From IMG/VR virus record IMGVR_UViG_3300005590_000001, positions 1 to 64,000 of that record: a stretch of 64,000 nucleotides of DNA; one strand, 5' to 3'. Shown here one piece after another: positions 4,517 to 60,619 of this stretch. This stretch comes from a virus. The position numbers were made by a program, and so were the translations under genes. Numbering within the stretch: the first letter of the stretch is position 1; each line of letters begins with the position of its first letter. The notes under the pieces are model-generated. The model saw nothing but the letters and a program-made list of their open reading frames with translations. It was not told where the DNA came from and did not search any database.

Positions 4517-4526
4517 AGTTGGTTTC

Positions 4527-9557: not shown

Positions 9558-9804
9558 TGTATTCTACACCACTTTTTACCAGCAATCACTTTATTGATAT
9601 CAAAGTCTAACTCCGCATTTGGATCTATTTTTGTAAATAGTTTTTCTAATGCTTGAATCCGTTCTTCAGCATCTTGTTTTTTACTAAAAATTTGTATGTT
9701 ATCATAATCCATATAAATACCACTATTGGTATTGAGATCGTCCCACTCATCATTTAGTAATAAAATTTGGTTAGTCACATTATCATAAATACAATATTGA
9801 TAAT

Positions 9805-17240: not shown

Positions 17241-19724
17241 CTAAACATAAAGTTCCTTAATAGTATTTAAATTATTTTTAGCCCAATCTAAAATCTGATC
17301 AATACCAGTAGTAATATCTACTTTCGGCGACCACTCAAAAATACGCTGAACTTTATCTAGATCCGATATGTATATACGTTGATCAGCACGACGTTGTTCG
17401 CCGTTTTTATCCACAGATACAAACTTTTCGCCGGTTTTCTCTTCTACCATATTGATTAGTTCAAGTACTGACAATGTATTATTTTTACCACCGCCGACAT
17501 TAACTACAGTTGAAGGTCCGCCGTTATGTAAATACTGAATCTGCTTCAAAACTAAATCTTGAATATCATCCATAAATAGGCAGTCACGCACCTGTTTACC
17601 ACCCCAGCCGTAAATTGTTACTGGTAACTTAAGTAGATTAGCAATGACGAACCACGCGACCCATCCCTGCTCGGATTTTCCCCACTGATAAGGTCCAGCC
17701 AAACAATTGTGTACATGAAAATTATTTGCAATAAAATTATGACTATTTTCTACAGTCATATCATATACGTCATGAATTCCTATAGATTTTTTGTCTACAA
17801 TTTGATCCCAAACCATTCCTTCACCGCTGGTATCTTTGGTGTGAAGCTGTAACCAATCCTTAAATTTTGAGATTGCTAAATCTTCTTTCAAAAATTCTGA
17901 CAAATACATTAAATTATTTTGCCGATGATCATTATAGCTATATCCAATCTTATTAAATTTAGCATATGTATCTTTAGCAGATCCCAATCGTAGTTCAACA
18001 CCAATGGAAGTAGATCCGTCACTATTTTCATATTTAAGTGTTTGATGTAGTGAACTACCAATTCCGAACTCTAATAGCAGATCTCTTAATTCATACATAA
18101 ATGCATACAAATTATCTTGATAATCTTCAAGTTTACACTGAGTCATATTAAGATTTTGTAATTCTAATTTTTCTTGTCCCTTTCTGTTTCTATTTACCAC
18201 ATTGGGACAAGATCCTTCAGCGCCAAACAAACCACCCAAGAATTCTGCTTTGATATCTGTATCGGCAGATTTGATCCAATCCGGAACCAAATATTGATTG
18301 GTTACTTTTCTGTTGGTTGGCAACCCAAGTAAATACATATAGAATGAGAATGAAATACTACTAACACATATCTTTTTTGACTCTCCATCAATAATTTTAC
18401 CATTAGTTAATTCAGATTTAGAATTACTTTTAAAGATATCAGAACAATGAAATCCTAATTCCTTAATTTCATCTCTAATTTTTAATAAAGTTGCATCATG
18501 TTCATCATAAATTTGCATATTAATGGCAAAGTAATCTTTACCATTATCACTCCTTTGGCGTTTTTTAAATGACAAATGTCCGTCGCCGAAACACCACCCT
18601 AACAAACGAGCAATTTTATAAATGTTAGAATTGTTACATTTGAGCGGTAATAAACCTTTATTTTCTAAATCCGCAATAGACTTATCAATAAATTTTTGTG
18701 AGAATAACAAATCTGGATTAGAGATTGCCTCTCTATATTGATTTGAAGATAAAATTACTTTGTCTGATAATGCAGAAATATGTTTGCGTGTTCTTAAATC
18801 TGGATTAATTTCCACAAAAGAACCATGAGATATGTTTTCTAATTTTTGATATCCAGCAGGTGTGTAATACTGATGACAGTCTGTCGATTGAAGTTTAAAA
18901 CCCCTGCGAGTTGTCACTTCAAACAATTCTTTTTGACCGTTATGAAAGACACCGGTAGGTGTAGAATTATACCCTTGGTTGTCTTTAACGTCAATATCTT
19001 TGTCAATATTGATTAATTGTAGATCGCCGGATTTTGTCTTAATAAGAGTATCAGCAGCTAAACAACTAAACCGATTGATAACTGCCGGAATACTATAGGC
19101 GTCAGACCATTCCTGAATAAGTAAGTCGGCCATTGCTTTAGAAACGCCGTAAATACTACGGTCTCCGCCGTTGAGATTAAATCTCGTTGTTATTCCTCTT
19201 TCTGTAAATCCGTCACGTTCGTGTAATGCGACCATTACCGCTTGTTCTGGAGTAAGTTGAGGCTTAATAATATTATTTTTCTGCCGTGGAATAATATCTA
19301 CCCATTCATAACGAGTAGGTTTTTCTACATATGCAAAGTGATTGCAAGGTTCTCCCGGATATACCTTATTGGTAGACCAAAATACAATTGGAATTTTCGT
19401 TTTTCTAGAATACTCTAGAGTATTAAGCACACCAATTGTATTATTCTGAATATCGAATGCGGGATTCTTATAATTCACGGCTGATGGCTGAGCTGCCGTC
19501 AAAAGAATCGCATGATAATCGTCTCCAAGATTCTTGAAATCCTCCGGATTTCTAATGTCGCCGTGAATAAAATTTACTCCATGTTCTTTCAAACGCGGTA
19601 GATTAAATTCACTACCTCGGCGGACTAGGTTGTCTACCACATCCACCATCCATCCGTCTTTGGCAAAGTTACATGCTAAGTTTGCACCGATGAATCCGGC
19701 GCCGCCCAAAATTAAAAGTTTCAT
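17241..19724 (-). CDS. NDP-sugar epimerase (CDP-paratose 2-epimerase/RfbE-like SDR) with an intein
   Basis: GGAGFIG, STNKVY, YGVSK, NRFS|C...GPYQWGKSEQGWV, QVRD. Confidence 0.9.
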   Translation of the reverse strand: MKLLILGGAGFIGANLACNFAKDGWMVDVVDNLVRRGSEFNLPRLKEHGVNFIHGDIRNPEDFKNLGDDYHAILLTAAQPSAVNYKNPAFDIQNNTIGVLNTLEYSRKTKIPIVFWSTNKVYPGEPCNHFAYVEKPTRYEWVDIIPRQKNNIIKPQLTPEQAVMVALHERDGFTERGITTRFNLNGGDRSIYGVSKAMADLLIQEWSDAYSIPAVINRFSCLAADTLIKTKSGDLQLINIDKDIDVKDNQGYNSTPTGVFHNGQKELFEVTTRRGFKLQSTDCHQYYTPAGYQKLENISHGSFVEINPDLRTRKHISALSDKVILSSNQYREAISNPDLLFSQKFIDKSIADLENKGLLPLKCNNSNIYKIARLLGWCFGDGHLSFKKRQRSDNGKDYFAINMQIYDEHDATLLKIRDEIKELGFHCSDIFKSNSKSELTNGKIIDGESKKICVSSISFSFYMYLLGLPTNRKVTNQYLVPDWIKSADTDIKAEFLGGLFGAEGSCPNVVNRNRKGQEKLELQNLNMTQCKLEDYQDNLYAFMYELRDLLLEFGIGSSLHQTLKYENSDGSTSIGVELRLGSAKDTYAKFNKIGYSYNDHRQNNLMYLSEFLKEDLAISKFKDWLQLHTKDTSGEGMVWDQIVDKKSIGIHDVYDMTVENSHNFIANNFHVHNCLAGPYQWGKSEQGWVAWFVIANLLKLPVTIYGWGGKQVRDCLFMDDIQDLVLKQIQYLHNGGPSTVVNVGGGKNNTLSVLELINMVEEKTGEKFVSVDKNGEQRRADQRIYISDLDKVQRIFEWSPKVDITTGIDQILDWAKNNLNTIKELYV
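17706..19064 (-). mobile_element. Cis intein with LAGLIDADG endonuclease in the epimerase
   Basis: CLAADT start, STDCH block B, LLGWCFGDG and FLGGLFGAEG, VYDMTV...HVHN|C end. Confidence 0.93.
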
Positions 19725-30967: not shown

Positions 30968-32512
30968 CTATCTCTCACGTTTGGGTTTAATAACTCCACT
31001 TTTCTTTTCATAAAACTCCACATCATCATGACCCTTGCGTTTACTGAGAAGATCAAAAATTTCTATTTCAGATACTGGCCGAATTTCTTTCCAGATTCTA
31101 TAAATAGTTTCCGGAGATACTTCTGTTGAACGACGCTCAGGCCAAATCGCATCTAAGGTTTCTTCGCGTTGATCGTGGCAATTGCCAGTGAGTACAACCT
31201 TACCATTTCTACGCATCAAAAAGTTTCCATTATTACACTTAATGCACCAAAATTTTTGGTTATCTACACGTCGAGAATTAAATCTATTTTTTAGATTTGT
31301 AATATCTACTCTGGTTTTATCTTTGGAAACAGATAATTGATATTGAATATTTTTTGTAAATCCAGTACCTTCTCTGCTATATTTAGTTGCTCCGCAACCA
31401 TTAGTTACCGCTGCATGTTGCAGAATATCAATCTCTTCTTCTTTAGCTGAATAAATTATAACACCACCCGAGTCGGTAAAACAACCGTCTGAGTGCCCAT
31501 ATGCTTCTAATATCGCTTCAAATTGAGATCTTTTTACAAAAGCTAATTTAGGATCTAAACCTTTGATTTTATATTGCAAGATGTTTTCCGGAATATAAAA
31601 GTTAAAACTTGTATAATTCTTTTTGTTTTTAGTTTTAAAAATTATTCCATTATTTTTAAGTACATATTCAATATAATCTTTTTTATACTGCTTCGAAACT
31701 CTAATACGACATAGGTTTGTTTCTGTTTTAATAGAACCATCTGCTGCAATTAAAATCAGTAACTTTAATTCGGCGTCAGTTAAATCTACAGAAGATGTCC
31801 AATCGTGACCACAACGCGCCACAGTGGGTCTAGACTGTTGAAAAAAGTCTTTAGCTTCTGTAAACACCATCCGATCATCATTATTAAATGAAACACATCG
31901 ATGTTTATCAGTAAAGCACATACTCATGGATGGAGAATCAAATTGATATACATCTCCAGAGTATAAAATTTCTATAATATCATTAACAGTATCATCTACA
32001 AGATTACCATGTTCATCCATAGAGTAAATTTCTTCACCGATGAATAGTTCATATCTCGTTTTCCATCCGCGTTTCGTAAGAATTTCAGTTTGCATATCCA
32101 TGCAATGACCGTATAAATGGTAAGATTCACGATGAGAAGCTGGCCAATAAGCATGTGGATAATGACTTAAGAAACAACGAGCATCACATATCTGAATATC
32201 CATTGTATCCTTAACCATGCCCTGTCCCCATACTTCTTCGCAAGCTTTCCAACTTGGATCATGATTACCTTTGATCAGGAAGTATTGTACACCAGACTTA
32301 AGTTGACTTCTAAACTTGCCAGCGTGTCTGAAAGAGAAATCGCCGAGCAAATATAGAATATCACCTCTATTAATAGTAGAATTAATTTGACCAATTATAA
32401 AAGTTTGCCAAGCATTAATATCTTTAAAGAAGGGATGATCCCCCATAACACCACGTCGTACAGGTAGAAGCACATCGTGGTCAATATGAACATCACTTAA
32501 GAACCATTTCAT
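30968..32512 (-). CDS. Calcineurin-like metallophosphoesterase with an intein
   Basis: SDVH, LGD, GNHD, SHYP, LYGH|CH motifs. Confidence 0.88.
   Translation of the reverse strand: MKWFLSDVHIDHDVLLPVRRGVMGDHPFFKDINAWQTFIIGQINSTINRGDILYLLGDFSFRHAGKFRSQLKSGVQYFLIKGNHDPSWKACEEVWGQGMVKDTMDIQICDARCFLSHYPHAYWPASHRESYHLYGHCMDMQTEILTKRGWKTRYELFIGEEIYSMDEHGNLVDDTVNDIIEILYSGDVYQFDSPSMSMCFTDKHRCVSFNNDDRMVFTEAKDFFQQSRPTVARCGHDWTSSVDLTDAELKLLILIAADGSIKTETNLCRIRVSKQYKKDYIEYVLKNNGIIFKTKNKKNYTSFNFYIPENILQYKIKGLDPKLAFVKRSQFEAILEAYGHSDGCFTDSGGVIIYSAKEEEIDILQHAAVTNGCGATKYSREGTGFTKNIQYQLSVSKDKTRVDITNLKNRFNSRRVDNQKFWCIKCNNGNFLMRRNGKVVLTGNCHDQREETLDAIWPERRSTEVSPETIYRIWKEIRPVSEIEIFDLLSKRKGHDDVEFYEKKSGVIKPKRER
31181..32104 (-). 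mobile_element. Cis intein with a LAGLIDADG-like domain in the phosphoesterase
   Basis: CMDMQTEILTKRGW start, TDKH, IAADG and YGHSDG, FWCI...RRNGKVVLTGN|C end. Confidence 0.9.
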
Positions 32513-32514: not shown

Positions 32515-33402
32515 TTAAAATTCCACATAAGGATTAGCAACGGAAATTATATTCGGCATTTTTAGATCATGCCAACAACGAATCATTTGCGGCCGATCAT
32601 CAACCACTGCACACACATTGTACTTAGGACTTACAGAAGAAAAGAGCAATTCGGTTTTTATAATCGAGTCTCGGCGATTATCTCCGGCAGCTCTCATGAA
32701 TAGATCGCTATACTCAATGTAATTATCTTTTAACCACCGTTCTGTCTCTGATCTTGCGGCCGAATCTCTACCGCTGAGTAATACCACCTGATAATTTCTA
32801 GTTATGGCTAATGATGCAACCATATCAATAATAGTATCTCGTGGCTTATCATTGTAAACCTTATCCCACTCAAACGGCTTTCTATTATGCATCTCCGCAA
32901 TAGTGCCGTCAATATCACAGATAATACATGATGGCAAATCTTTGTTAGGTTTGTAAAATTTATATCGGCCATCTTCAGACAGATATTTAAGCCACTGTCC
33001 CCATTGCCTATACAAAACTTGAGGACCAACGCCATTTGTCCGCGCCGTATCCCTTTTCTGTGCTTCCTCTAATTTAATGGGAAATTCTTTAATGGATACT
33101 TCGTATCCAAGAGATTGTAGTTTTGAAATCAACGATTTGCGGGAACCACTATGTAAATTAGTATCTGATATGACAATATCTTTTTGTATAACAGAACAAT
33201 GCTCAACTATCTTAAGATTAACGGCTGTAACAAAATTTTCCACAGAAGATTTAAATTTGTAAGTTGACCAATCTTTATGGCCAAACAAAGTAAATCTCAT
33301 ATTATCACGATTAATATTTATCGCACCTGTCTTACGACAATGCTCATCAGCCCATGTGCTTTTTCCAGAAGCACTAATTCCTACTGTCAGTATTGCTTTC
33401 AT
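32515..33402 (-). CDS. pseT: T4-type polynucleotide 5'-kinase/3'-phosphatase
   Basis: GISASGKST P-loop with NRD; DIDGT HAD motif; SGR; DDR. Confidence 0.92.
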   Translation of the reverse strand: MKAILTVGISASGKSTWADEHCRKTGAININRDNMRFTLFGHKDWSTYKFKSSVENFVTAVNLKIVEHCSVIQKDIVISDTNLHSGSRKSLISKLQSLGYEVSIKEFPIKLEEAQKRDTARTNGVGPQVLYRQWGQWLKYLSEDGRYKFYKPNKDLPSCIICDIDGTIAEMHNRKPFEWDKVYNDKPRDTIIDMVASLAITRNYQVVLLSGRDSAARSETERWLKDNYIEYSDLFMRAAGDNRRDSIIKTELLFSSVSPKYNVCAVVDDRPQMIRCWHDLKMPNIISVANPYVEF

Positions 33403-33814
33403 TTCGTTTACGTTCTTCCATCTTTCTTTTTACACATGTACGAATATCGGCGTTAACCGCTCGTAAATTATTATTTGCTAATTGCATTTTAATAAACGTC
33501 ATATTCTGACGCATATCTCCATACATTTTTTCTGTGGGTACTAACTTCATTAGATTATCAAGAGTTAGCCGTGGAGTAACAAATTCTTGAATCAAGTTAG
33601 ATTGACGCCTTTTCTTGTTATCATTGCCACGTTCAGCATCAATCATTAATTTCTGTGAAAGAATTTTAGCTTGAGTTCTAATATTAACTGTAGTAATCTG
33701 TGATAATGTATTAATATTATCTAAAAGAGATTGATATGCTTGCATAGCTTCAATATTACGAGTGTGTTTTGCTTTATTTAAATTTGAAAATATTTCTTGA
33801 ATTAAAACATTCAT
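33374..33814 (-). CDS. Helical protein, weak YqeY-like resemblance
   Basis: LIQEI...AKHTRN..AMQAYQSLL pattern; paralog-like to 50178-50567. Confidence 0.35.
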   Translation of the reverse strand: MNVLIQEIFSNLNKAKHTRNIEAMQAYQSLLDNINTLSQITTVNIRTQAKILSQKLMIDAERGNDNKKRRQSNLIQEFVTPRLTLDNLMKLVPTEKMYGDMRQNMTFIKMQLANNNLRAVNADIRTCVKRKMEERKRNESNTDSRN

Positions 33815-34353
33815 TTTATATAACCCTTATTTTTTCGACATCGATCACAGTATGTAAATCTTCGTGCTTTAAGAATATCATCACAATCTTTGCATCTTTT
33901 AATCATTAAATGCATTGTTACACCAGTTGCATCATACATATCACAATTAACCATAAATTGGTGTAACGCATCAGATATCATAGTCGGCGGAATTTCATTC
34001 GCTTCAAATCTATTATTAATAATACCTTTATATTGACCCCAACAGACAATATCAAAACGATCGCTGCCAGCCCTAAATTCAATATGAGGATGATAATATT
34101 TAGACGTGGGTAAAGTTTTAATCTTTCCTAAAAAGATATGCTTACCCCTATAAGTTTGTGACGGAACAATAAATAGATTTACAGTTGTAGGAAAAGTTCT
34201 ACCCTGTATTTCAAATTTGAATGTTTTTCTTTTTGAGAGATTGAAAGAATTTCTACCATCATTAAAAGACCAGCCCTCGTTTAAGAGGGCCTCTATGTCT
34301 TTTTCCCATTTTTTAATTAATTCTTTATGTTCTTTTCGCATTTTTCTTTCCAC
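33811..34353 (-). CDS. E2 (UBC)-like protein with a C-terminal Zn finger
   Basis: YHPHI...IVCWG catalytic-like motif; CKDC/CDRC. Confidence 0.6.
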   Translation of the reverse strand: MERKMRKEHKELIKKWEKDIEALLNEGWSFNDGRNSFNLSKRKTFKFEIQGRTFPTTVNLFIVPSQTYRGKHIFLGKIKTLPTSKYYHPHIEFRAGSDRFDIVCWGQYKGIINNRFEANEIPPTMISDALHQFMVNCDMYDATGVTMHLMIKRCKDCDDILKARRFTYCDRCRKNKGYIK

Positions 34354-34603
34354 GAAATCTACGTTGGTAATAGGGTCTATCTACCATTACAGAAAATCCT
34401 GCAAAGTTTTGCAACTCAGGCTTCCCATCCCATTTTTCTTTATAAACAGGAGGCCAGTGTAGATTAAAAACTACTTGTAAAGTTCGAACATCATCCAGAT
34501 TTGCTTTCCCCATTTCTAAATGGTTAAGAAAATCAACAAGCCAATCATCATAATCGGCAATAATAGTTGAGTTCTTATCAAATCTAATCTTAATTTTCTT
34601 CAT
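34325..34603 (-). CDS. Hypothetical protein within the Ubl module
   Basis: Coupled between the E1 and an E2-like gene. Confidence 0.55.
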   Translation of the reverse strand: MKKIKIRFDKNSTIIADYDDWLVDFLNHLEMGKANLDDVRTLQVVFNLHWPPVYKEKWDGKPELQNFAGFSVMVDRPYYQRRFRGKKNAKRT

Positions 34604-35286
34604 TACTTCTTACCTTTGTTATCGTCTTCAAATTTAAGTTCTTCAAACAAACCAATCGGCAGATGAATTAGGAAATTCTTAAGAACATAACGGCCCATTA
34701 CGGCAGAAGTAAATTGTGAAACAAGCATAGATGCGGCAATATTTGCTCCATGTTTGATCATGGGGTTATGACAACCACCAGTATTTTGTACAGCTTTATC
34801 ACTATAGAAAGTATTGGCGTAACCTTCTTTTGATTCGTCGTCTACCAAAGCGAAAGTACGAATCTGTTCGCCAGCTACACGACTATCAAAGATAAATTTA
34901 GCCTTGTCTTTATAGAACTTGTAAAGCTTTTCTCTCATACTGAAAGTATCAACACACATGAAGAGAACATCATAAGAATCTTTATGGGGTCGCCACCTAT
35001 CATTGATATGTTTAATTTCAATATTTGGATTAATAGAATGCATTTCTTCCGCAGTACATTCAACTTTAGGTCTACCAATATCGGCAGTTTTATAACCCTG
35101 CGAAGTACAGTTGTGTTCCTCAACTGTATCAAAGTCATAAATTGTAATACTACCAACACCGTTGGCGGCAATTGTGCGTGCGATTTCTCGACCAACAGCC
35201 CCGACACCAACAATTAAAGCTTTAGTTTTGCTAACAATATCTTGATCAATAATTTCAGATTGACGAGAGTAACGATCATCAGACAT
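34603..35286 (-). CDS. ThiF/E1-like ubiquitin-like activating enzyme
   Basis: RYSRQ, GVGAVG, DFDTVEEHN, CVD, DSR, candidate catalytic Cys in GGCH. Confidence 0.9.
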   Translation of the reverse strand: MSDDRYSRQSEIIDQDIVSKTKALIVGVGAVGREIARTIAANGVGSITIYDFDTVEEHNCTSQGYKTADIGRPKVECTAEEMHSINPNIEIKHINDRWRPHKDSYDVLFMCVDTFSMREKLYKFYKDKAKFIFDSRVAGEQIRTFALVDDESKEGYANTFYSDKAVQNTGGCHNPMIKHGANIAASMLVSQFTSAVMGRYVLKNFLIHLPIGLFEELKFEDDNKGKK

Positions 35287-36392
35287 TATACAACTCCTTC
35301 ATAACCAAGTTCTTGAACTTCTTTAATATATTGCTCAAGAGCTTTTTGTAAAAAGTTAGGACGAACTTTATATTTACCACAGATATATGACTGCTTTAAC
35401 GGTGTTAATTCGTTAAAGACACATTTCAAACCACGGTAAACCTCTGGATGATCATCCATAATTATAGAACAATCATGATCATCAAACTTAGATTCAATGT
35501 TTGTCATATTTCTAAACATTCTGACCACTTCATTTTTTGGATGACTATAAAGTGTATCAAAATATTTATAATCAGCTTTATTTAATTGACACTTCTTTTC
35601 GGTAAGAAGACGTAAAGCAATTCGCCGACTGATAATTTCTTTTTTATCCTCAGCTTCTGGAATTGTTGCCCCGTTACTTATTGGGTAATAACCAGCATTA
35701 TGACTGTTAGGTTGATAATGTCCTACAACCCTACCAGTACCAATATTGTGATTGTATTGCTTTTTTCTGACACACTCTTTTAACTCTTTTAACCAATTGT
35801 CATGAAAAGCTTTATATTGTGAGAGAAATGACTCTTCAATATAAGAAATATTATATTGTTGAGCAGCTTCTTCAAGATCAAAAATGTATGAAGTTGGAAC
35901 AATCCAATTACCAACTATTACTTTTGCAGATTCAAGAGTTTGCTTTTGTCCAAGACGAGAGTCATACATAGTACGACAATAGTCTTTATTCTTTTTTGCC
36001 ACAATATACATGCAAGCGAAATCAGCATCCTCTTTAATTTTCTTAAAGTTATCCTCATCTACATTTGAAGGATTGGGAGATTCTCCGGGATGAGTATGAA
36101 TCCAAATACGTGAGAATGTAATAGGGTCCATTTTGTCATCGAACATACGAGCTTCTCGCCAATCAGTATATTCTTTCTCAAGAAATTCTGTATTGCCGCC
36201 GGTACATTCTTGGGGTACACACAAAACATCTACAACTCGGTGTATATCATCCTCACTATTTTTAGAAATTCCCATAAGAGATACTTCTAAAAATGATTCT
36301 GATTTTTCTCCACCACCCTGAACATTTTTTTCAATACAATTATCACGAAAGAATAAAACTTTCGCGAAAGCTTTTTCATCAAAAATAATCAC
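35286..36392 (-). CDS. JAB/MPN metallopeptidase with a C-terminal extension
   Basis: LEV (catalytic Glu), PQEC, WIHTHP...PSNVD JAMM motif. Confidence 0.88.
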   Translation of the reverse strand: MIIFDEKAFAKVLFFRDNCIEKNVQGGGEKSESFLEVSLMGISKNSEDDIHRVVDVLCVPQECTGGNTEFLEKEYTDWREARMFDDKMDPITFSRIWIHTHPGESPNPSNVDEDNFKKIKEDADFACMYIVAKKNKDYCRTMYDSRLGQKQTLESAKVIVGNWIVPTSYIFDLEEAAQQYNISYIEESFLSQYKAFHDNWLKELKECVRKKQYNHNIGTGRVVGHYQPNSHNAGYYPISNGATIPEAEDKKEIISRRIALRLLTEKKCQLNKADYKYFDTLYSHPKNEVVRMFRNMTNIESKFDDHDCSIIMDDHPEVYRGLKCVFNELTPLKQSYICGKYKVRPNFLQKALEQYIKEVQELGYEGVV

Positions 36393-36394
36393 TA

Positions 36395-37288
36395 TTAGTT
36401 ACCTTTTCGACAACTAGTACAGATGCTTTTCTCCGCACCTTTAGGAGTACGCACACCAACTGTACGTTTTTCACAAGTCTCACACACACTTAAGAAATGA
36501 GACAGATGAGGATATCCTGTGTGCTCATCTATATTCATTCCACTATTCACACATTTTTCACACAACCTAACATTAGATGTTGCACATGCAACAAATTCAT
36601 CTACTGGCCTAAGATCACCACATTCTTGACACTCATAACCAACCCATTTTGCAATTGGAGAATGAGCACCTTCTCGCCGACCAAGATTTTCATCCCCGCC
36701 GTATTTAGTAAGAACTTTTAATACTATATCAAAAGCATCTCCTAAGCGACAATTGGATGCAAATTTTTCGTACATTTTTCTGAAATCACCAAGACATAAA
36801 TTGTATGCTCCATTTACATAGGGATGAAACATACCATCCTTTTCAGTATTGTTTTCAGCTGGAACAACCTTGACGTGATTTTCACCTAAAGTACTGTAAC
36901 CAAAAATCATACTAATATCAAACTTACCGAAGTCAAAACTTTCTCCGGATACTACATCTTCCATAATGATATGTTTAGAACGTACTTTGAACAAGTTAGT
37001 ACGCACGCTTCTAATTCTTGTACAGTTTTCTCTAATGTAATTTAACTGATTTTCAATTTCATCATCAGTTAAAAACATTGATCGGCTTAATACATTTTGG
37101 AGATGATACATAGCATCTCTATTCGGAAGAGATTCTGCTAATATAGATAATGCCCCAATAAGCTCATCCATATTATTAACATCTGGTTTACGAATAGTTG
37201 CGAGTCTATCAAAATCAATTGTTTTAAAATGACGAAATTCGTTTCTATATACAGCTATGTGATCTTTTAAAATATCTTCTACTGCCAT
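36395..37288 (-). CDS. Prokaryotic E2-like protein with multiple C-terminal Zn fingers
   Basis: FHPYV...NLCLGD followed by helices; CQEC, CEKC, CETC, CTSC. Confidence 0.75.
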   Translation of the reverse strand: MAVEDILKDHIAVYRNEFRHFKTIDFDRLATIRKPDVNNMDELIGALSILAESLPNRDAMYHLQNVLSRSMFLTDDEIENQLNYIRENCTRIRSVRTNLFKVRSKHIIMEDVVSGESFDFGKFDISMIFGYSTLGENHVKVVPAENNTEKDGMFHPYVNGAYNLCLGDFRKMYEKFASNCRLGDAFDIVLKVLTKYGGDENLGRREGAHSPIAKWVGYECQECGDLRPVDEFVACATSNVRLCEKCVNSGMNIDEHTGYPHLSHFLSVCETCEKRTVGVRTPKGAEKSICTSCRKGN

Positions 37289-37299
37289 TAGTGAATCCT

Positions 37300-37339
37300 A
37301 AAAAGAAAACAAAGACGGGTATTTGCATACCCGTCTTTG
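37300..37339 (-). terminator. Intrinsic terminator/attenuator after the Ubl gene
   Basis: Perfect 13-bp stem CAAAGACGGGTAT/ATACCCGTCTTTG with a U-rich tail on the minus strand. Confidence 0.85.
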
Positions 37340-37355
37340 AGATACGACAGAAAGA

Positions 37356-37970
37356 CTACTCTGCAGAAGTCTTCCACACATCAGATTTTGCGTCAGGAAC
37401 GCTACAGCCCATTCGAGCACAATAGTGTGATGCATCGCCCTTGAGACCAAGATAAGCGATTGCAGAAAACACATTGTAAACGTCAGGCTTAAGAAGCTGA
37501 GACAGAGCATAATTAGCCTCTGCACGCTGCTTATTCAGATCAGCAAGACGCTTCTCGGTAGCTTCAATCTCTCGGTTGAGAGAGCCAGAATCAGCCCGCA
37601 TCATACCAAGAACCTCAGCAACAACAGTCTTCTGAGCCTTACAAGCGGTTTCAAACTCTTCTTTCAAAACCTCACCGATAACACCGTCATTGATGGCAAG
37701 CTTACCTGCACCAAAATTGACAATGCTTTCGTAAGTCTTCGTTTGAAGAGCATCAACCTCATCAGCACCCTTCATATCACGCTGGGTAACAGTGATGATA
37801 TCACCATTGCCAAGAACCTGATCTTCAGCGGCATCCTGACGATTAACCCGAACAATAGAATTGCTGAAGTTAATACCCTGACCACTAACAAGCTTGCCAA
37901 CAGTCGTACCATCTTCAACATTCAGACCAACAGACGCACCAGTGGCCTTAACCAAGTTTACCCGAATCAT
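37356..37970 (-). CDS. Ubiquitin-like (ThiS/MoaD beta-grasp) domain fused to a C-terminal coiled-coil domain
   Basis: MIRVNLV...GTTVGKL...VRVN...VLGNGDIITVT..MKGA (aa 1-69), then about 135 aa of tail. Confidence 0.82.
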   Translation of the reverse strand: MIRVNLVKATGASVGLNVEDGTTVGKLVSGQGINFSNSIVRVNRQDAAEDQVLGNGDIITVTQRDMKGADEVDALQTKTYESIVNFGAGKLAINDGVIGEVLKEEFETACKAQKTVVAEVLGMMRADSGSLNREIEATEKRLADLNKQRAEANYALSQLLKPDVYNVFSAIAYLGLKGDASHYCARMGCSVPDAKSDVWKTSAE

Positions 37971-38017
37971 TTTAAACCTCCAATTGGAAAAAGGGGAAAA
38001 CTTAGAACTTACTCAAC

Positions 38018-38626
38018 TCAAGCAAGTTCTTTGCACACATTACAGACTTTGTCTTTTAAAATTACATCGTCGCACATTTCACAACGATTAACTTTAAAAA
38101 ATCTACCAAGTCCGTCTTTGATAGTTGCTTTTTGCAACATATCAATAATAATTTCTACACATAATCCTATATCATGTTTTTTTACAAGAGCATCTCTAAC
38201 ATGATGAGCAACACTACCCAAACACAAAAGAAGTTCTTTGCGGTGTGGATTTTCATGCGACATTTTATAAATGTTATAATGAGAACATCTTTCTTTATTG
38301 TTCGCATAATTAAAATCTATATTACCACCGGTTACAAACATTCCATGACGATGTGCTTGTAAAACTTTTTCAATATCAAAAAAGATTTTAAATTCACCAA
38401 AATTTAATTGTGTTACAGAACAGGTAATATTGCCAGTGTTAAATACAAAACCATAGACATCCTTTTTATATTCATGTCTAAAATAATAATCAATACCTCG
38501 TAATTCATTAATCCGTGTTAAGTGTCTAGCAAGATCATTAATTCTATAACCCGGTATCTTATCAGTTGGAAATCTATATAAGAAATCTTTTTTTGTTACT
38601 TTAATGCTTTCTGTATTAGTTTCCAC
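38018..38626 (-). CDS. E2-like protein with a C-terminal Zn finger
   Basis: FGEFKI, SHYNI...LLCLGS, CEMC/CNVC; same layout as 36395-37288. Confidence 0.6.
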   Translation of the reverse strand: METNTESIKVTKKDFLYRFPTDKIPGYRINDLARHLTRINELRGIDYYFRHEYKKDVYGFVFNTGNITCSVTQLNFGEFKIFFDIEKVLQAHRHGMFVTGGNIDFNYANNKERCSHYNIYKMSHENPHRKELLLCLGSVAHHVRDALVKKHDIGLCVEIIIDMLQKATIKDGLGRFFKVNRCEMCDDVILKDKVCNVCKELA

Positions 38627-39588: not shown

Positions 39589-41226
39589 TTACCAACATCC
39601 TATCCTTTCTCTAATTTCGGCGAGAGTAGTTTCATTCTGAATCTCACCATTACGAAAGACAGTTTGTAATTCATTACCAAGAGCTTCTTCTTCTTGGGTT
39701 ACATCCTCCACCAAATAGTATTTACCGTTAGTATCTTTTCTGACACACAGTAAACCTTTGGCCGACTTTTTAAATCCAGAATGTCCATCGGCACGTTTAT
39801 TTTTATTAGTCTTAGGATCTTTAAAGATGGATATAACTTGATCATTGATCACACAAGATGTGGCCTTACATGCAATGCCGAATGTATCTCGCGTAACATA
39901 CTGATATGTAAAACTGCCGAAGCCAAACACTACATTAGTACTAGCGAACTTTTGTTCAACCAGTCTCGTAATAATATTCTTAGCCTTATCATAATTAATC
40001 GAATCGCCGTAGATAAGTCCAATCTTAGGATTCAATTCTTTGTAACCCTTAGAATTAACGGTACTGCCAAAAATTTCATCAAGCACAGCAACACTACCTA
40101 TTGCTTCTTCTCTTGTAATTTCGCCATTTGCCGTCAGAAATCTACCATCGTCGGTTTGGGCACATTCTATTTGCTCGGAATATGTCATCTCATTCATTTT
40201 ACCAAATTGATAATTTGAATTATGATGTACCCTCGTAATTCTGTAACCGGCAACAATATGTCTAGGATCTCCACTGTCTGGTCTGATTACTAGCTTACCA
40301 TCCCGAGCAAGAATTTCATCTTTGAGCGCAGGTAAAAGTTTAGTTAAAACTCTCCAGTAATCATAGGTATCGCTAACTACTGACAGGATGCCTTTAGGAA
40401 ACCTCTTGAAGAGTTCTTTAAACCATTTTAGTTCGGCATCGTAACGTTCTTCTTCAGAAGTCAAGTTGTTAAAACTTGCCATTCCAATCTGCATAATAGA
40501 ATGTTCAGTTGCCGGAACGCTACCACCGACGAGTTCTTTTTCAATATCGGCACTATAAAATTCTTCTAGGAATTCAATACCGGGAATCGTATCAGTACCA
40601 TAAAAACTTAGAAGATGTGCGGCACCACTAGCACCGGCAGCTTCCATACCAAACAAACCACGCATAGAAAAATCATGACCTTGCCAAGGTACAAAGTTTG
40701 GATCGCCAGTTGCTTCGGCAAATTCATTTAACATTTGTCGAATATGATTAGCAGTAGTAGCTGAAGTCATAGGACCCCAAACAACATTTTGTTCAATGGT
40801 TTCTAAGTATCCCGGCAACCACGGAAAATCTTTATGAGTACTAACCATAGTGGTGAATGGAACTTTAGTCGGACACTTAGATCCTTCTGGCAGTGCTTTA
40901 ATATGGATCGGTAGATAACCAAGTTTGTGTAATTGCCGCAAATTATCAATAGGGTAATCGATTTCTTCTACACCAAGACAATGCTTAAGGATTCTACTAA
41001 ATCTATTGACGGCGTCGTTTTCATCAAGATCGAAGAAGTATTTGTTCCAATAATCTATTAAGTAGTGTTTAATGAAATATTGTAGGCCGAAAACTACAAC
41101 CTCATCTACATTTTCAACTCGCGAATTACGTGCTGTTGTGTTATTGTATACTTTGGTAACTCCATCAGCTACCATTTTAGGATGGAGACACTTATAAAAG
41201 TCTGCCGCACTAAGAGCGCTTTTCAT
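39589..41226 (-). CDS. Nicotinamide phosphoribosyltransferase-family protein (NAMPT/Namat-like)
   Basis: ADFYK, HDFSMRG, PATEHS, SVVSDTYD, RPDSGDP, YGDSI, KKSAKG. Confidence 0.93.
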   Translation of the reverse strand: MKSALSAADFYKCLHPKMVADGVTKVYNNTTARNSRVENVDEVVVFGLQYFIKHYLIDYWNKYFFDLDENDAVNRFSRILKHCLGVEEIDYPIDNLRQLHKLGYLPIHIKALPEGSKCPTKVPFTTMVSTHKDFPWLPGYLETIEQNVVWGPMTSATTANHIRQMLNEFAEATGDPNFVPWQGHDFSMRGLFGMEAAGASGAAHLLSFYGTDTIPGIEFLEEFYSADIEKELVGGSVPATEHSIMQIGMASFNNLTSEEERYDAELKWFKELFKRFPKGILSVVSDTYDYWRVLTKLLPALKDEILARDGKLVIRPDSGDPRHIVAGYRITRVHHNSNYQFGKMNEMTYSEQIECAQTDDGRFLTANGEITREEAIGSVAVLDEIFGSTVNSKGYKELNPKIGLIYGDSINYDKAKNIITRLVEQKFASTNVVFGFGSFTYQYVTRDTFGIACKATSCVINDQVISIFKDPKTNKNKRADGHSGFKKSAKGLLCVRKDTNGKYYLVEDVTQEEEALGNELQTVFRNGEIQNETTLAEIRERIGCW

Positions 41227-41485
41227 TCTTTGACCTCTCTTCTAAATCAAGTTGACCAAGAGTGTGACCTAAAGCTGTAACGGTCATAAAAATTGTAAAT
41301 AGTAAAAATAGATTTGTTAAAGATGCATAAATAACATATGACCAAAAAGTTAAATCAGAAAATGCTAATTTACATAATAGTGCAATGTTTGCAAAGACAC
41401 CAACCAAAGAAAGAATAAACGATAAAATGCCAACTAAAACCATTACTATGTTAAATGTATCACTATACTTTTTAATTTCTACCAT
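41210..41485 (-). CDS. Small membrane protein
   Basis: Two hydrophobic helices. Confidence 0.55.
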   Translation of the reverse strand: MVEIKKYSDTFNIVMVLVGILSFILSLVGVFANIALLCKLAFSDLTFWSYVIYASLTNLFLLFTIFMTVTALGHTLGQLDLEERSKNEKRS

Positions 41486-42378
41486 GTTAAAAACTCACTT
41501 ATGTGGATTGCATTAACTCCAACTTGATTTAATGATGTCAAAACTTGATGATCATCATCTACTACGGTTACGTCTCGTTTGTCCAACTTCCTCGAACGAA
41601 TGATAGAAAGCGCTTCCACATATTTATAACGTTTATTACCAACGAAGAAACGATTTTCTTTAGGAATAAAAGGGGCGTGCTTATCAAGCCACTCCTCTTT
41701 TTCTCGTAAACTTTGGCTATTAGGCATGGCAGAAAGAATGTAAACGTTATCACGATTAAGAATGCGGTCCAAAACTGGTTGAACGGGTCTAGCATACTTA
41801 AAATATTCCCCATCTGTAAAATTAATGTTGCCGTTTTCATCTAACGGCATGTGTTGATATGCCGCAAGCGTACCATCCATATCAAAGAAGATATGTTTGT
41901 TGGTATAGTATGGAACGTCAACGACATCATCACAGTATTCAAGTAATCTGTGGTAGCAACGATTTTTAATAATTGCTTTCTTAATAATCGCCGATTCAGG
42001 TACTGTTCTTTCTCGCTGCTTATTTCGTTCTAAGCAAACTGCAAGTGGCGTGTCAATATTAACAAGTACAATTTGATACTCACCGATCTGATCAACTTCA
42101 CTCATCAATCTCGCATTATACTTATTATTGATACCACCACCGTCAAAGAATATTGTACTATATTTTAATGATTTAGCGGCGTTTATAAGCTGTTGTTCTG
42201 CTCTTTCTACACTTAATTGATGTAGAGCTTCGGGAAATGCTGGATTATATAAAGGGTTTTGTTTTTTGATTTCATCAGCGGATATAATAATTGGGTCGAA
42301 AAAATTATCTAACCTATTTTGTATCCAAGTTGTTTTACCGGCACCCGGCAAACCGAACATAAAGTAAACGGTTCTCAT
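41479..42378 (-). CDS. P-loop kinase (AAA_33) fused to a HAD phosphatase
   Basis: GLPGAGKTT, RNKQRER lid; FDMDGTL, LS, VDD. Confidence 0.85.
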   Translation of the reverse strand: MRTVYFMFGLPGAGKTTWIQNRLDNFFDPIIISADEIKKQNPLYNPAFPEALHQLSVERAEQQLINAAKSLKYSTIFFDGGGINNKYNARLMSEVDQIGEYQIVLVNIDTPLAVCLERNKQRERTVPESAIIKKAIIKNRCYHRLLEYCDDVVDVPYYTNKHIFFDMDGTLAAYQHMPLDENGNINFTDGEYFKYARPVQPVLDRILNRDNVYILSAMPNSQSLREKEEWLDKHAPFIPKENRFFVGNKRYKYVEALSIIRSRKLDKRDVTVVDDDHQVLTSLNQVGVNAIHISEFLTW

Positions 42379-43172
42379 TTTGAGTACTCCAAACCTTTTC
42401 TACTATAAATATTTGTAATACCAGATTCGTATAGAGTATCTACACCCTTAGAAAGTATCAAGTGTGAGCAATATAAATCTACACATTTGGGTTTGGTATT
42501 CTTATGTATTGCTTCGGCCGCGAGCTTAAATGTCATACCGCCGTCGCAAATATCATCTACTATTAGACATCTTTGCCCTTGTAAGTCTTTAAATTTACTT
42601 CTTGCTAAGGGTTCAGACATGGTAATATAGCCAGTTTCAGGATCTCGTTGTTTAAGTAAAACAAAATCCTTGTTTGTTCGTAAAATATATCTTTTTGCGG
42701 CAGATTCGTCTGGATAAATTGTGTAATCATATTTATATTGTTTAATAATTCTACGAATAATATGATCGGGTGATTGAACAGTAATGAAACCCTCAAGTAC
42801 ATCATGCCAACAGTGTAAATCAAAGCATATAATTTTATTTACATAATTACGCATTAAACCTACAAAAGTAAATAATGCAAATGTATTATTGTTATTTATT
42901 GATTTGTCTTGTCTGGCATAAGGTAAGTATGGAGCATGTAATGTAATTACTAAATCTGGACAATATGATCTGAGCAAGTCGCAAAGCTGACAAATATGAA
43001 AGATTTCTGATTCATTTTCAAATTGCCAATCAATTTTTACATGTTTATCGGCAACAATTTGTAAACACATTTCTGCAGAAAGATGCCAAACTTGACTAGT
43101 TTTGTCGGGAAAAACGGTGGGTTGAATGACATGACTGTCAATACTAATCATCTTTTTTATCCTGTTGAACAA
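42375..43172 (-). CDS. Ribose-phosphate pyrophosphokinase-family protein (Prs/Adps-like)
   Basis: FPD, PYLPYARQD, YPD, LIVDDICDGGMTF. Confidence 0.9.
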   Translation of the reverse strand: MFNRIKKMISIDSHVIQPTVFPDKTSQVWHLSAEMCLQIVADKHVKIDWQFENESEIFHICQLCDLLRSYCPDLVITLHAPYLPYARQDKSINNNNTFALFTFVGLMRNYVNKIICFDLHCWHDVLEGFITVQSPDHIIRRIIKQYKYDYTIYPDESAAKRYILRTNKDFVLLKQRDPETGYITMSEPLARSKFKDLQGQRCLIVDDICDGGMTFKLAAEAIHKNTKPKCVDLYCSHLILSKGVDTLYESGITNIYSRKGLEYSK

Positions 43173-58292: not shown

Positions 58293-58604
58293 TTCTACGG
58301 AGCCTTGACTTCTCTCAAGAATTTCTTTTACTTTTTGTTTACGTTCTTTATGTTCTTTTTCTTTCTTATCATAAAGCTCATATATTGGTGTAATGTCATC
58401 AAAAACTTGTTCACACTTCAAACAGACCCTAATGGAATAAAATTTACTTGAAGTAAAAAAATCTGGTCTTAGTGATTTTTGACCCCTTTTTTCAAAACAA
58501 TCACACTCTATTTCGTAGAGAGACATAGTTTTGATAAGATAAAAATCATGTTGACACTCATCTGATTTGAAGAAACTTTTTATCCATGTAAAAAACTTAT
58601 TCAT
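58284..58604 (-). CDS. Hypothetical protein
   Basis: CQHDF...VCLKC. Confidence 0.55.
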   Translation of the reverse strand: MNKFFTWIKSFFKSDECQHDFYLIKTMSLYEIECDCFEKRGQKSLRPDFFTSSKFYSIRVCLKCEQVFDDITPIYELYDKKEKEHKERKQKVKEILERSQGSVEAR

Positions 58605-60619
58605 GATATCTCCTGAATTTCTTTTTCAAACAGAATTCTATCTCTAACCTTCATCAGACAAAGCCCAAGCAAATTTTTACCCAACCACTTATCTGGGTCA
58701 CCTATCCTAGGATCATCGGCAGATAAACCAACACCCCAAATCTTATCATAAGGACTAGCTTCAATCAATACTGTATCATTAGTTGCTAGCAATCTTTCTT
58801 TAAGATCCTCATTCTGATTAAATTTCAACATATTAATGGAATTAACTATTTTTTTGTTAGATACACTCCACATATATTCATTGAAATTTTTTACCTGTCT
58901 TCCTAATTTTTTAACTTCATTTGGATCGTGTGTCTTTAAAATTCTTTCTTTAATTTGATGATCATCAAACAAATTTGCTTTCATAAACATCATAGCTTGT
59001 TCAGCAGATGTAAATTTACATTCCTCTCCACCAAGCATCATTTTAAAATTACATCTAAACCATTGACTTAAAAATCCATATTCTTCATTTACTCTGAAAA
59101 ATGTAATAAATTTTTTACCATTCCTCAAAGCAGATTTCATTCTTTTTTCTGTTTTCTTAAAGGTGTTATTTTTATTATACTTATCTCTTATATTTCCAAT
59201 TTCTACCTTAAGTATTTTTTCTTCCGGAGTCATTGTAAGAGATTTATAAAGACCCATACCATCTTTTATCAATATATCCTTATTGATATCATATTTGCTC
59301 AATTGAACACGATATACATGATCTAAAGCTTTACCCATTTCTGGTCCCGGCTTAGCACCAGCTTTAATCAAATCATAACCACTGACTTTTCGAGGCTCTT
59401 TGTCAAACAACACATTAAATTTAGACGCAGTCTCTTCTAAATTATGAATGAAGGCAACATGCTGATCATCTGGCAATTTATCACCGCGACCAAACATATC
59501 AGAGCGTACAAGCATCAACAATTCTGAAATATTTGTGCCAAACTCACTAAGTTTGAACGCTAATTTCTTAATATTTTTTGATGATAGTTTCATATTACTA
59601 TCAAGCATATGATACTTAGTTAAACCCTTAACTGGTCTAACATACATATTTGGAACACCAATCTGTTCAAAGAAATCATCAATAATATCATCGGCGATTC
59701 TTTCGTGATTGTGTGAAGCAATATGGCCTTTATGCAATTTGGTAGTTTTATACTTACCAATATCATGACACAATGCTGCAAAAAACATTTGAATACTATA
59801 ATCTGTATTAAAAATATTTCTTTGTGCAAGAATCGCATACATCATATCAACAACATGACATGTATGTGTGAAGACATCACCTTCTGGGTGATATTCTGAA
59901 TCTTGCGGCGTAAAAATCATTTGCTGAAGAGCAGGCGTATACGATAGCCAACCAGTATTATTCAAAAATTGCAATGCTCGACTCGGTTGAATAGAAGTTG
60001 CAATCTTTTTCCACTCTCCCCAGATTCTCTCTTTTGAGATTGTATAATAATCTCTATGCAGAATTTTAGAATATGTTATCAAATCTGCAGATGGTTCAAA
60101 TTGAAATCGTGCAAGAAATTGTGCCGCACGAAGAACACGCAATGGGTCTTCACAAAATTTTGCCGAAGTTGGATGCAAGATACCATCTTTAAGATTTTTT
60201 TGACCGCCGTAATGATCAATAATAGTGCCATCAAAACTCATCAACATAGAATTTATAGTAAAATCTCTACGAAGACAGGCTTCTTTTGTACTAGTATCTT
60301 TATCGGCGATTATTTTAAAATCTTTATGCGATGGTCCAGTGCTCTTTTCTCTTCTCGGCAAACTAAAATCAAATTCGCCGTCATCATTCGTCAACTTATG
60401 TACAAAAAAAGATTCGCCGTGAGAACTTACTTTACCATATTTTGACAAGGTCTCAACCAAATCTGCCGAATGAACATCATAGACCTCAACGTCCCAATCC
60501 TTTGGTTCATAACCAAGCAAAATATCTCTTACACAACCACCAGCCATAAACAATCTCGCCGAATAACCAGATTGTTTTAGCTCATTCTCAATTTTGAGAA
60601 GGGTCAAAGGAATATCCAT
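58601..60619 (-). CDS. cca: CCA-adding tRNA nucleotidyltransferase (NTase + HD) fused to a C-terminal NADAR domain
   Basis: GGCVRD, DWDV, RRDFTIN, EDPLRVLR, ERIW, YHPEGDV, LCHDIGK; then LSQWF, SAEQAMM..KA, KLGRQV, EASPYDKIWGVG, GKNLLG..LM.VR. Confidence 0.9.
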   Translation of the reverse strand: MDIPLTLLKIENELKQSGYSARLFMAGGCVRDILLGYEPKDWDVEVYDVHSADLVETLSKYGKVSSHGESFFVHKLTNDDGEFDFSLPRREKSTGPSHKDFKIIADKDTSTKEACLRRDFTINSMLMSFDGTIIDHYGGQKNLKDGILHPTSAKFCEDPLRVLRAAQFLARFQFEPSADLITYSKILHRDYYTISKERIWGEWKKIATSIQPSRALQFLNNTGWLSYTPALQQMIFTPQDSEYHPEGDVFTHTCHVVDMMYAILAQRNIFNTDYSIQMFFAALCHDIGKYKTTKLHKGHIASHNHERIADDIIDDFFEQIGVPNMYVRPVKGLTKYHMLDSNMKLSSKNIKKLAFKLSEFGTNISELLMLVRSDMFGRGDKLPDDQHVAFIHNLEETASKFNVLFDKEPRKVSGYDLIKAGAKPGPEMGKALDHVYRVQLSKYDINKDILIKDGMGLYKSLTMTPEEKILKVEIGNIRDKYNKNNTFKKTEKRMKSALRNGKKFITFFRVNEEYGFLSQWFRCNFKMMLGGEECKFTSAEQAMMFMKANLFDDHQIKERILKTHDPNEVKKLGRQVKNFNEYMWSVSNKKIVNSINMLKFNQNEDLKERLLATNDTVLIEASPYDKIWGVGLSADDPRIGDPDKWLGKNLLGLCLMKVRDRILFEKEIQEIS

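Follow-up and report, generated by a model that had tools for sequence, protein, structure and literature searches.

A putative phage-borne ubiquitin-like conjugation cassette with a homologous core operon in Planctomycetota

To our knowledge, the bacterial ubiquitin-like conjugation systems Bil and Bub, and the Cap2/Cap3 pair of the cyclic oligonucleotide-based antiphage signaling system (CBASS), have so far been characterized as cellular anti-phage immunity. In type II CBASS, Cap2 is an E2-E1 fusion which conjugates the CD-NTase itself. Here, we describe a gene cluster carried by a phage and located on the minus strand at positions 33811 to 38626 of the window, i.e., positions 1 to 64,000 of an IMG/VR record of 171,987 bp (IMGVR_UViG_3300005590_000001) which bears direct terminal repeats and is rated complete. 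The cluster (here termed the cassette) encodes the precursor of a ubiquitin-like protein (Ubl), an E1, a JAB/JAMM metallopeptidase, and three E2-like proteins, of which two are assigned with less certainty (E2a and E2c) than the third (E2b). It is defined by the domain identities of its products, their catalytic residues, and the synteny of four of its genes with a bacterial operon. It is proposed, with a probability of approximately 0.65, to represent a phage-borne Ubl conjugation cascade, an estimate which includes both the proposed chemistry and the proposed role in infection.

Bil operons encode Ubl, E2, JAB, and E1 as separate proteins in the order Ubl-E2-JAB-E1, with the JAB protein trimming the Ubl (PMC11601596, PMC1779556), and the Bil E1 combines tandem adenylation domains with a Cys domain (PMC11601596). 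The cassette resembles Bil in the Ubl-E2-JAB-E1 order and in the separate nature of the encoded proteins, whereas its E1 consists of a single adenylation domain of 227 amino acids (aa), and whereas E2s of Bil (class 6d of Iyer et al. 2006) lack the canonical His, E2b harbors a His-Pro pair at the canonical place. Furthermore, Bil is a host system with one E2 and no zinc-finger fusion, in contrast to the zinc fingers, the three E2s, and the phage-borne nature of the cassette. In Bub, the E1 and E2 are devoid of a catalytic Cys and operate through oxyester chemistry, a DUF6527 protein is present, and the Ubl is produced as a fusion which is cleaved by a peptidase of the operon (PMC11601596). In the cassette, the Ubl is likewise fused, albeit to a non-E2 helical domain and with cleavage predicted from an alignment boundary, and a minimal, homodimer-type E1 is paired with JAB through overlapping genes, the two being fused in Bub; unlike Bub, it possesses a Cys at the conserved E1 position (C172) and a Cys that is invariant in the E2b family (C165), and neither DUF6527 nor a BubE-like serine protease was detected among its proteins using Pfam at E values up to 1. 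Similarity to CBASS is apparent from the PADLOC models for E1-E2 (Cap2), which match the E1 region at 3.7e-14, and for JAB (Cap3), which match at 1e-6, but the E1 and E2 are separate, a dedicated beta-grasp Ubl is present, and the cluster encodes no CD-NTase as judged by Pfam. The E1-E2 models match the E1 part only, and no PADLOC model matched the Ubl or the E2s.

The traits of the general Ubl-E1-E2-JAB operon class (rows 6a to 6e of Iyer et al. 2006) are present in the cassette, namely, a beta-grasp Ubl with a conserved Gly, a UBC-fold E2 with a Cys, a rhodanese-free E1 adjoining JAB, and a JAMM motif. Its distinction from the known kinds, as predicted from sequences and models, would lie in the E2-zinc-finger fusion, the three E2 paralogs, the minimal E1, and the long extension carried by the Ubl precursor. 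With respect to phages, the survey of Iyer et al. (2006) includes only the Ubl-JAB pair of the lambdoid tail-assembly genes, and our literature searches on phage E1/E2/JAB/Ubl systems retrieved bacterial and archaeal work only, an outcome which is not proof that no description exists.

Gene content and catalytic residues of the cassette

The cassette comprises seven head-to-tail open reading frames (ORFs) on the minus strand, with the coordinates that had been given in the original prediction, a reading of this DNA which proposed a Ubl-E1-E2-JAB parts list for the region. Support for the Ubl, JAB, and E1 is good; among the E2s, one assignment is firm and the other two are probable. The genes are tightly arranged: the E2b stop and the JAB start are separated by 2 nucleotides (nt), JAB overlaps E1, and E1 overlaps an ORF of 92 codons, by 1 nt each, and the latter ORF overlaps E2c by 29 nt. 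An intrinsic-terminator-like hairpin (positions 37310 to 37339, minus strand), with a perfect 13-bp stem, a 4-nt loop, and a T tract, is located between the Ubl gene and E2b.

E2b (297 aa; positions 36395 to 37288) is composed of an N-terminal helical region (residues 1 to 88), a UBC-fold core (approximately residues 60 to 229), and a C-terminal zinc finger (C220 to C293), and bears the motif H155-P156-Y followed by C165-L-G167. An exhaustive representative search yielded 133 homologs, the closest of which derived mostly from Logan assemblies (one being located on a 156-kb contig), while word-indexed searches with E2b and with the Ubl precursor recovered nothing other than the query or a 99% twin of it. 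No variation occurs across 70 aligned homologs at H155, P156, C165, G167, W215, or the Cys ligands. The 10-residue spacing between H155 and C165 equals that between the HPN motif and the catalytic Cys of canonical E2s (UbcH5 H75/C85).

The AlphaFold2 (AF2) model of E2b (pLDDT of 87, pTM of 0.76) was compared with known structures by several routes. Foldseek retrieved E2 and UEV proteins as nearly all of the top matches (E values of 0.01 to 0.08, probability up to 0.98), and upon VIA re-alignment of these candidates, all 50 listed entries were E2s, with UBE2S being superposed at a Z score of 7.5 and a root mean square deviation of 3.9 over 130 of 150 residues. An unbiased comparison with 48,161 chains placed canonical E2s at ranks 1 to 19 (Z scores of 5.3 to 6.5) and BubB at rank 26 (Z score of 5.0). 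Because such Z values are middling, the assignment of the fold rests on the uniformity of the E2 matches together with the motif. At the sequence level, Pfam UQ_con was matched by 3 of the 70 family members at E values up to 0.01 (the best being 1.3e-4), and the E2b-family profile, when compared with sequences of the Protein Data Bank (PDB), retrieved zinc fingers only and no E2s. The C-terminal 80 residues match cellulose-synthase RING-like (2.3e-4) and FYVE (5.8e-4) profiles, and FYVE/RIM structures with Z scores of 4.4 to 5.3; this region, therefore, resembles a binuclear FYVE/RING/PHD-like zinc finger.

The two remaining E2-like proteins flank the other cassette genes and possess comparable signatures, i.e., NPH...C135-L-G and a C-terminal CxxC...CxxC zinc ribbon (C182/185/195/198) in E2a (202 aa; positions 38018 to 38626), and H88-P-H...C104-W-G and a C-terminal CxxC...CxxC zinc ribbon (C154/157/169/172) in E2c (180 aa; positions 33811 to 34353). 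BLAST comparisons among E2a, E2b, and E2c were not significant. The E2b family is linked by hhalign to E2a with a probability of 62% (E value of 7.6e-5) and to E2c with a probability of 83% (8.9e-6), and hmmsearch with the E2b-family profile across 11 proteins of the window scored E2a at 7e-4 and E2c at 3.5e-6, the other eight scoring 0.12 or worse. The alignments span the strand preceding the motif (FG.F.I in E2a), the [HN]-P-[HY]...C-x-G motif, and the zinc ribbon. Against all six frames of the complete genome, the same profile detected E2b and E2c alone, E2a being missed, and comparison of a further profile (A6) with E2a was not significant (3.7%). Based on these profile comparisons, E2c is a probable paralog of E2b, and E2a a likely but more weakly supported one. 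The expectation of the original prediction that the HPxx...CLG/CWG proteins adopt a UBC fold is thus supported for E2b by AF2 and structure searches, while for E2a and E2c it is backed by profile only.

The Ubl precursor (204 aa; positions 37356 to 37970) produced no Pfam, PHROG, or PADLOC match, and its N-terminal beta-grasp was recognized by structure matching of an ESM Atlas model, residues 1 to 67 of which superpose on ThiS/MoaD (TM score of 0.84 by target), as well as on RnfH and ubiquitin-family clusters. The Ubl domain (residues 1 to 68; positions 37767 to 37970), as delimited by the ThiS/MoaD match and homolog alignments, ends in M-K-G68 and is followed by a helical C-terminal extension (residues 69 to 204; positions 37356 to 37766, including the stop codon). 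Each alignment with Planctomycetota Ubls stops at residue 69, and the bacterial proteins follow the consensus IRVNRQ...GD...T....(E/K)GA, several of them terminating in GA-stop. In these alignments, G68 falls opposite the Gly that is conserved in the bacterial ...EGA terminus, while the phage protein reads ...M-K-G-A followed by 135 more residues. Because several bacterial Ubls end at GA where the phage protein continues, G68|A69 would be the likely JAB cleavage site, and release of the extension by JAB is predicted from these alignments. A Ubl fusion is present, with a non-E2 helical domain as the partner and with a predicted cleavage point that derives from the alignment boundary. The extension itself is missing from the bacterial homologs, and Pfam, PHROG, and homolog searches detected no family or conserved motif within it. 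As a separate observation, the 2-kb bin holding the Ubl gene has the highest G+C content of the window (0.385 versus approximately 0.33), which may reflect recent acquisition or high expression.

E1 (227 aa; positions 34603 to 35286), a ThiF/MoeB/UBA5-like protein, consists of a single ThiF domain (residues 15 to 199; Pfam ThiF, 6.7e-30) without a rhodanese domain, and its best solved relatives in the PDB are Uba1-type E1s (1e-14), with MoeB, ThiF, UBA5, and BubCD (1.3e-5) also being retrieved. It carries the motifs RYSRQ, GVGAVG, DFD, and CVD. The distal Cys which had been proposed to accompany the GVGAVG motif corresponds to C172 (...GGC-HNP), located at the crossover-loop position, where a Cys is also found in most related phage E1s and in one inspected Planctomycetota E1; C172 is, accordingly, the candidate catalytic Cys of this enzyme as far as sequence comparison can indicate. 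JAB (368 aa; positions 35286 to 36392) comprises a catalytic domain of approximately residues 1 to 150 and some 200 further C-terminal residues, and the HTHP...PSNVD stretch by which it had been recognized proved to belong to a complete JAMM motif (E...HxHx7Sx2D, formed by E36, H99, H101, S109, and D112). It is matched weakly by Pfam Prok-JAB (0.007), of which it represents the sole match across the 172-kb genome, while RPN11 is among its weak PDB matches.

Modeling of the complex, which had been put forward as a check of the cascade, was performed with an E1 dimer and Ubl(1-68), and resulted in an ipSAE of 0.50 versus 0.20 for the best control, a weak pass which is rated as weak support. Of 80 solved complexes, 58 attain the pass mark, as do 2 of 110 mismatched pairs; scores of 0.60 or lower include just 7 of the 80 solved complexes and both false passes, such that a pass in this range is more often wrong unless the pairing is likely beforehand. 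Ubl(1-68) was modeled with a pLDDT of 82 to 83 without an alignment, and the runs had at least 84% of their contacts in common. Resemblance to E1-Ubl complexes of known structure may account for the pass.

Two small ORFs accompany these genes. The 92-aa ORF (positions 34325 to 34603), the product of which contains no Cys and is without a match among Pfam, PHROG, or PADLOC models, is apparently translationally coupled between E1 and E2c. Beyond E2c lies a helical ORF of 146 aa (positions 33374 to 33814, minus strand), for which Pfam and PHROG searches gave no match. It overlaps the E2c stop by 4 nt and possibly belongs to the cassette transcription unit as well.

Related loci in Planctomycetota and in other phages

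Homologs of the four core genes were located in 21 Planctomycetota loci, including one on the complete chromosome of Planctomicrobium sp. SH527 (L033), by using a sub-alignment of longer E2b relatives to scan a single genome from each species. Wherever the locus is long enough, phmmer and BLAST identify all four homologs in the order Ubl-E2-JAB-E1 on one strand, and because the same four genes recur in the same order in these 21 loci, the cassette is more than a chance assembly. Identity between the phage and Planctomycetota proteins amounts to 38 to 43% for Ubl, 25 to 28% for E2, 35 to 36% for JAB (residues 4 to 148), and 36 to 38% for E1 (with E values down to 1e-48), and the E1 and JAB of the window are far closer to these bacterial proteins than to any phage E1 or JAB recovered. 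Pfam detects ThiF and, weakly, Prok-JAB in the bacterial loci. We found no description of the Planctomycetota Ubl-E2(Zn)-JAB-E1 operon in literature searches.

The bacterial operon agrees with the phage cassette in the H-P-H...C-x-G motif and CxxC-rich C terminus of its E2, in the crossover-loop Cys of its E1, and in the ...GA of its Ubl. It differs, however, in that its Ubl is a free protein of approximately 75 to 85 aa which ends at or just past GA, compared with the 135-aa extension of the phage Ubl, in that its E2 contains approximately 10 CxxC pairs rather than the 4 to 5 of E2b, and in that its JAB is approximately 230 to 270 aa in length as opposed to 368 aa in the phage. No homolog of E2a, E2c, or the 92-aa ORF was present in the Planctomycetota loci examined, and for this reason the extra E2s appear to be phage-side additions. 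A tyrosine integrase adjoins one of the loci (L023), and a large serine recombinase adjoins another (L039). The metagenome-assembled genome MFD01716.bin.2.82 harbors near-identical operon copies on two contigs (L023 and L024), and a single Planctomycetota contig (L030) carries two inverted Ubl-E2-JAB-E1 copies (positions 1545 to 4239, plus strand, and 7076 to 9982, minus strand). Together, these features suggest that at least some bacterial copies ride on integrative elements.

Close phage relatives were not encountered: megablast of the cassette and tblastn of E2b against GenBank phages each returned 0 matches, and viral-contig locus scans with an E2b homolog (P0002) and with an alignment (A4) retrieved no relatives. 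More distant modules were recovered via E1. In all IMG/VR loci thus obtained, a JAMM protein is located directly upstream of E1, preceded, in those reaching far enough, by a protein of 400 to 700 aa, and a protein of approximately 200 aa comes first in the inspected loci. The same arrangement is found in crAss001 (gp79 to gp76), DAC15, bajarodcaudo virus 1, and FpV4. The first protein of these modules (approximately 200 to 290 aa) has a beta-grasp-like start and a K-S-G-G, K-S-G-A, or D-N-A-A junction, with extensions of approximately 130 aa following K-S-G-G/K-S-G-A in crAss001, DAC15, FpV4, and the loci L008 and L009. These modules are like the cassette in gene order, in a Ubl precursor of approximately 200 aa, in the JAMM peptidase, and in a minimal E1 with the invariant YDFDTVEExN motif. 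They are only distantly related to it, however: their E1s are approximately 22 to 27% identical to that of the window, and phmmer searches with the Ubl, E2s, and JAB of the window produced no match in the E1-recovered phage loci. The E2-like protein of the crAss type, moreover, is encoded by a single gene, is 400 to 700 aa in length, has H-S-H...C-x-G with a longer spacing, and is without a zinc finger, and the crAss-type modules are located inside a replication module as opposed to the accessory region which holds the cassette.

The middle protein of the L004 type matches the E2b family (hhalign, 85%; 5.9e-6). L004 itself is a 148-kb IMG/VR phage contig on which a reverse transcriptase (RVT_1, 1.8e-19; positions 8945 to 10093, plus strand) is encoded directly 3' of E1. 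The middle protein of the crAss/FpV4 type, in which Y-x-H-S-H...C-x-G is invariant, was also considered as a member of the E2b family but was not linked to it by profile (hhalign, 10 to 19%; E values of 0.001 to 0.003). Foldseek on its AF2 model (pLDDT of 76) returned noise only; the top VIA match among the 48,161 chains was BubB of Citrobacter (Z score of 6.2 over 120 of 128 residues), followed by many E2, UEV, and RWD entries, a result which is suggestive of an E2/UEV-like core.

A further variant is present in the Xanthomonas jumbo phage PhiXhv-12 (L016), in which a 140-aa protein ending in ...S-G-G-stop (positions 2751 to 3173) is followed by an 892-aa protein (positions 3253 to 5931) with H-P-H...L-C-L-G and Cys-rich ends (hhalign, 69%; 4.5e-5) and by a ThiF/E1 (positions 5944 to 6627). 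The 892-aa protein contains no JAMM motif, the scan having covered that protein alone; the absence of JAB from PhiXhv-12, if real, would be in line with a Ubl for which trimming is unnecessary. The products of this module are annotated as hypothetical or as "thiamine biosynthesis protein," the latter being the GenBank label of related phage E1s. In PHROGs, those proteins of the crAss001 and L008 modules that were tested fall under "unknown function." The notion that the phage owns the cascade, as the original prediction had it, thus holds in that the phage carries it, but the cascade is not unique to this phage, its core being homologous to the Planctomycetota operon and analogous modules being widespread among other phages.

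Genome setting

The window has a G+C content of approximately 33% and contains 4 tRNA genes, and near-identical DNA is present in three metagenome runs from marine sediment, the source possibly being among them; the public runs listed include no RNA data set that holds it. On one side, the cassette is flanked by a gene for a PNKP-type kinase/phosphatase (positions 32515 to 33402), and on the other by genes for a NAMPT homolog (39589 to 41226), a second P-loop kinase/5'-nucleotidase fusion (41479 to 42378), and a phosphoribosyltransferase-domain (Prs-like) protein (42375 to 43172), all on the minus strand; these genes look like an NAD-salvage and RNA-repair neighborhood. At a greater distance (positions 58601 to 60619, minus strand), a poly(A) polymerase/CCA-adding head domain is fused to a NADAR domain (1e-49). 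NADAR domains are associated with the reversal of ADP-ribosylation, and this fusion may serve in counter-defense or RNA repair. On the basis of background knowledge, we take the PNKP, NAMPT, Prs-like, and NADAR neighbors to be repair or counter-defense functions.

Elsewhere in the window, a NAD-dependent epimerase/dehydratase gene (positions 17241 to 19724, minus strand) is interrupted by an intein with a LAGLIDADG domain, a 650-aa ORF (634 to 2586, plus strand) carries an intein splicing domain, and a 514-aa ORF (30968 to 32512, minus strand) was recognized by eye as metallophosphoesterase-like (DVHIDHD...GNHD) with an intein-like insert.

Proposed mechanism and alternative readings

We propose that the JAMM peptidase cuts the 204-aa precursor after Gly68 (M-K-G|A), which would release a 68-residue Ubl and a 135-residue fragment, and that the minimal, probably homodimeric E1 would adenylate the Ubl C terminus and then form a thioester with it on C172. 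The Ubl would subsequently be passed to the catalytic Cys of an E2, this residue being C165 for E2b and, probably, C135 for E2a and C104 for E2c, and from there to lysines of target proteins. The zinc finger or ribbon of each E2, together with the N-terminal helical arm of E2b, is most likely a built-in, E3-like substrate recognition element; given such appendages, the three paralogs would confer three target specificities with no separate E3. Termination at the hairpin that follows the Ubl gene would cause more tag than enzyme to be made, and JAB may also reverse conjugation. The weakest step of this scheme is the role, for which we envisage that host or phage proteins are modified in the course of infection, and host takeover or counter-defense is favored because the neighboring genes read as repair and counter-defense genes. 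More specifically, and only tentatively, the cassette may act as a phage "writer" in which three E2/E3 hybrids direct one tag to three sets of host or phage proteins, for instance, disabling defense or remodeling the cell.

Several observations weigh against this interpretation. The E1 possesses neither a ubiquitin-fold domain (UFD) nor another known E2-docking element, and transfer from E1 to E2 is for that reason assumed rather than supported, while the E1-Ubl complex prediction passed weakly. As regards the E2s, the structural Z scores of E2b (6 to 7.5) are middling, Pfam UQ_con (PF00179) does not match it at E values up to 1, and the Asn of the HPN motif is replaced by Tyr or His in its family; E2a and E2c are assigned from profile comparisons alone, and E2a has Asn where the His of the motif is expected. 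The Ubl terminus is Gly-Ala and not Gly-Gly, the mature end being either Gly or Ala, and a role in counter-defense is suggested through guilt by association only.

The main alternative to this role, a position it holds because the bacterial homologs are recombinase-flanked, retains the same chemistry but directs it at competing phages or mobile elements, rivals being excluded in a Bil-like manner through tagging of their structural or replication proteins. The integrase (L023) and recombinase (L039) neighbors and the double copies are typical of accessory or defense cargo, the gene order equals the Ubl-E2-JAB-E1 of Bil (PMC11601596), and Bil tags a phage tail protein (bioRxiv 10.1101/2023.09.04.556158). 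Such a role is nevertheless unlikely for the phage copy, beside which no defense regulator or effector was seen, for whose E2s and Ubl PADLOC is silent, and whose neighbors look like counter-defense and repair rather than defense; the analogous modules of crAss-like phages, FpV4, and the jumbo phage, furthermore, sit among replication genes. It is also conceivable that the cassette counters defense without any conjugation of its own, with JAB stripping host Ubl marks (those of Bil, or the cGAS conjugates of CBASS) and the Ubl and E2-like proteins acting as decoys or inhibitors of host E1 and E2. This would be in keeping with the match of JAB to CBASS-type JAB models (1e-6), with the speculation that phage deubiquitinase domains represent an anti-Bil measure (bioRxiv 10.1101/2023.09.04.556158), and with the counter-defense flavor of the neighborhood, but it is improbable, as it would render needless the intact ATP-binding motifs and Cys of the E1 and the H-P...C-x-G that is invariant in 70 E2 homologs, and as these four genes are also found side by side in bacteria.

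Two further readings would assign the beta-grasp protein a function other than tagging. In eukaryotes, ubiquitin-ribosomal-protein fusions offer a precedent for a cleavable N-terminal Ubl, and the beta-grasp domain might by analogy be a cleavable chaperone or pro-domain, with the released 135-aa C-terminal fragment being the real effector. An extension of approximately 130 aa after G-G/G-A is found in the phage versions and not in the bacterial ones, and Bub operons also make a peptidase-cleaved Ubl fusion (PMC11601596); we nonetheless regard this reading as very improbable, since it leaves the conserved E1 and E2 partners unexplained, the extension is without a detectable family or conserved motif, and release of such a fragment is compatible with conjugation rather than a replacement for it. 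The least probable reading is that of a sulfur carrier, whereby the Ubl would form a thiocarboxylate for cofactor synthesis or tRNA/DNA thiolation and the E2-like proteins would be zinc-binding accessories. It draws on ThiS, MoaD, and RnfH being the nearest structural look-alikes of the Ubl, on the minimal, ThiF/MoeB-sized E1, and on the GenBank "thiamine biosynthesis protein" label of the phage relatives. Consistent with the original prediction, which reported no sulfur-transfer client, no rhodanese, cysteine desulfurase (IscS/NifS), MoaE, or ThiG was detected in the complete 171,987-bp genome, with controls being positive, although host enzymes are possible. Also counting against this reading, no rhodanese is fused to the E1, a JAMM peptidase and a UBC-fold protein with a conserved Cys are its fixed partners, and the Ubl is produced in a longer form that would have to be trimmed.

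If it is indeed a conjugation cascade, the cassette places a whole putative Ubl pathway on a phage, such kits having so far been studied only in cells. An E2 which combines a eukaryote-like H-P...Cys geometry with a RING/FYVE-like finger, and which is present in triplicate, would constitute a compact, E3-free means of target diversification. Because a Planctomicrobium strain that is in culture and has a complete genome sequence carries the homologous operon, and because candidate cleavage and catalytic residues are defined, the question of the targets is directly testable, and this strain would provide a tractable model. Considered alongside the modules of crAss-like, Flavobacterium, and jumbo phages, the cassette suggests that Ubl tagging is a common, as yet unstudied phage strategy, and if the three E2/E3 hybrids do write such tags for the phage, Ubl tagging would be a phage tool and not only a component of cellular immunity.

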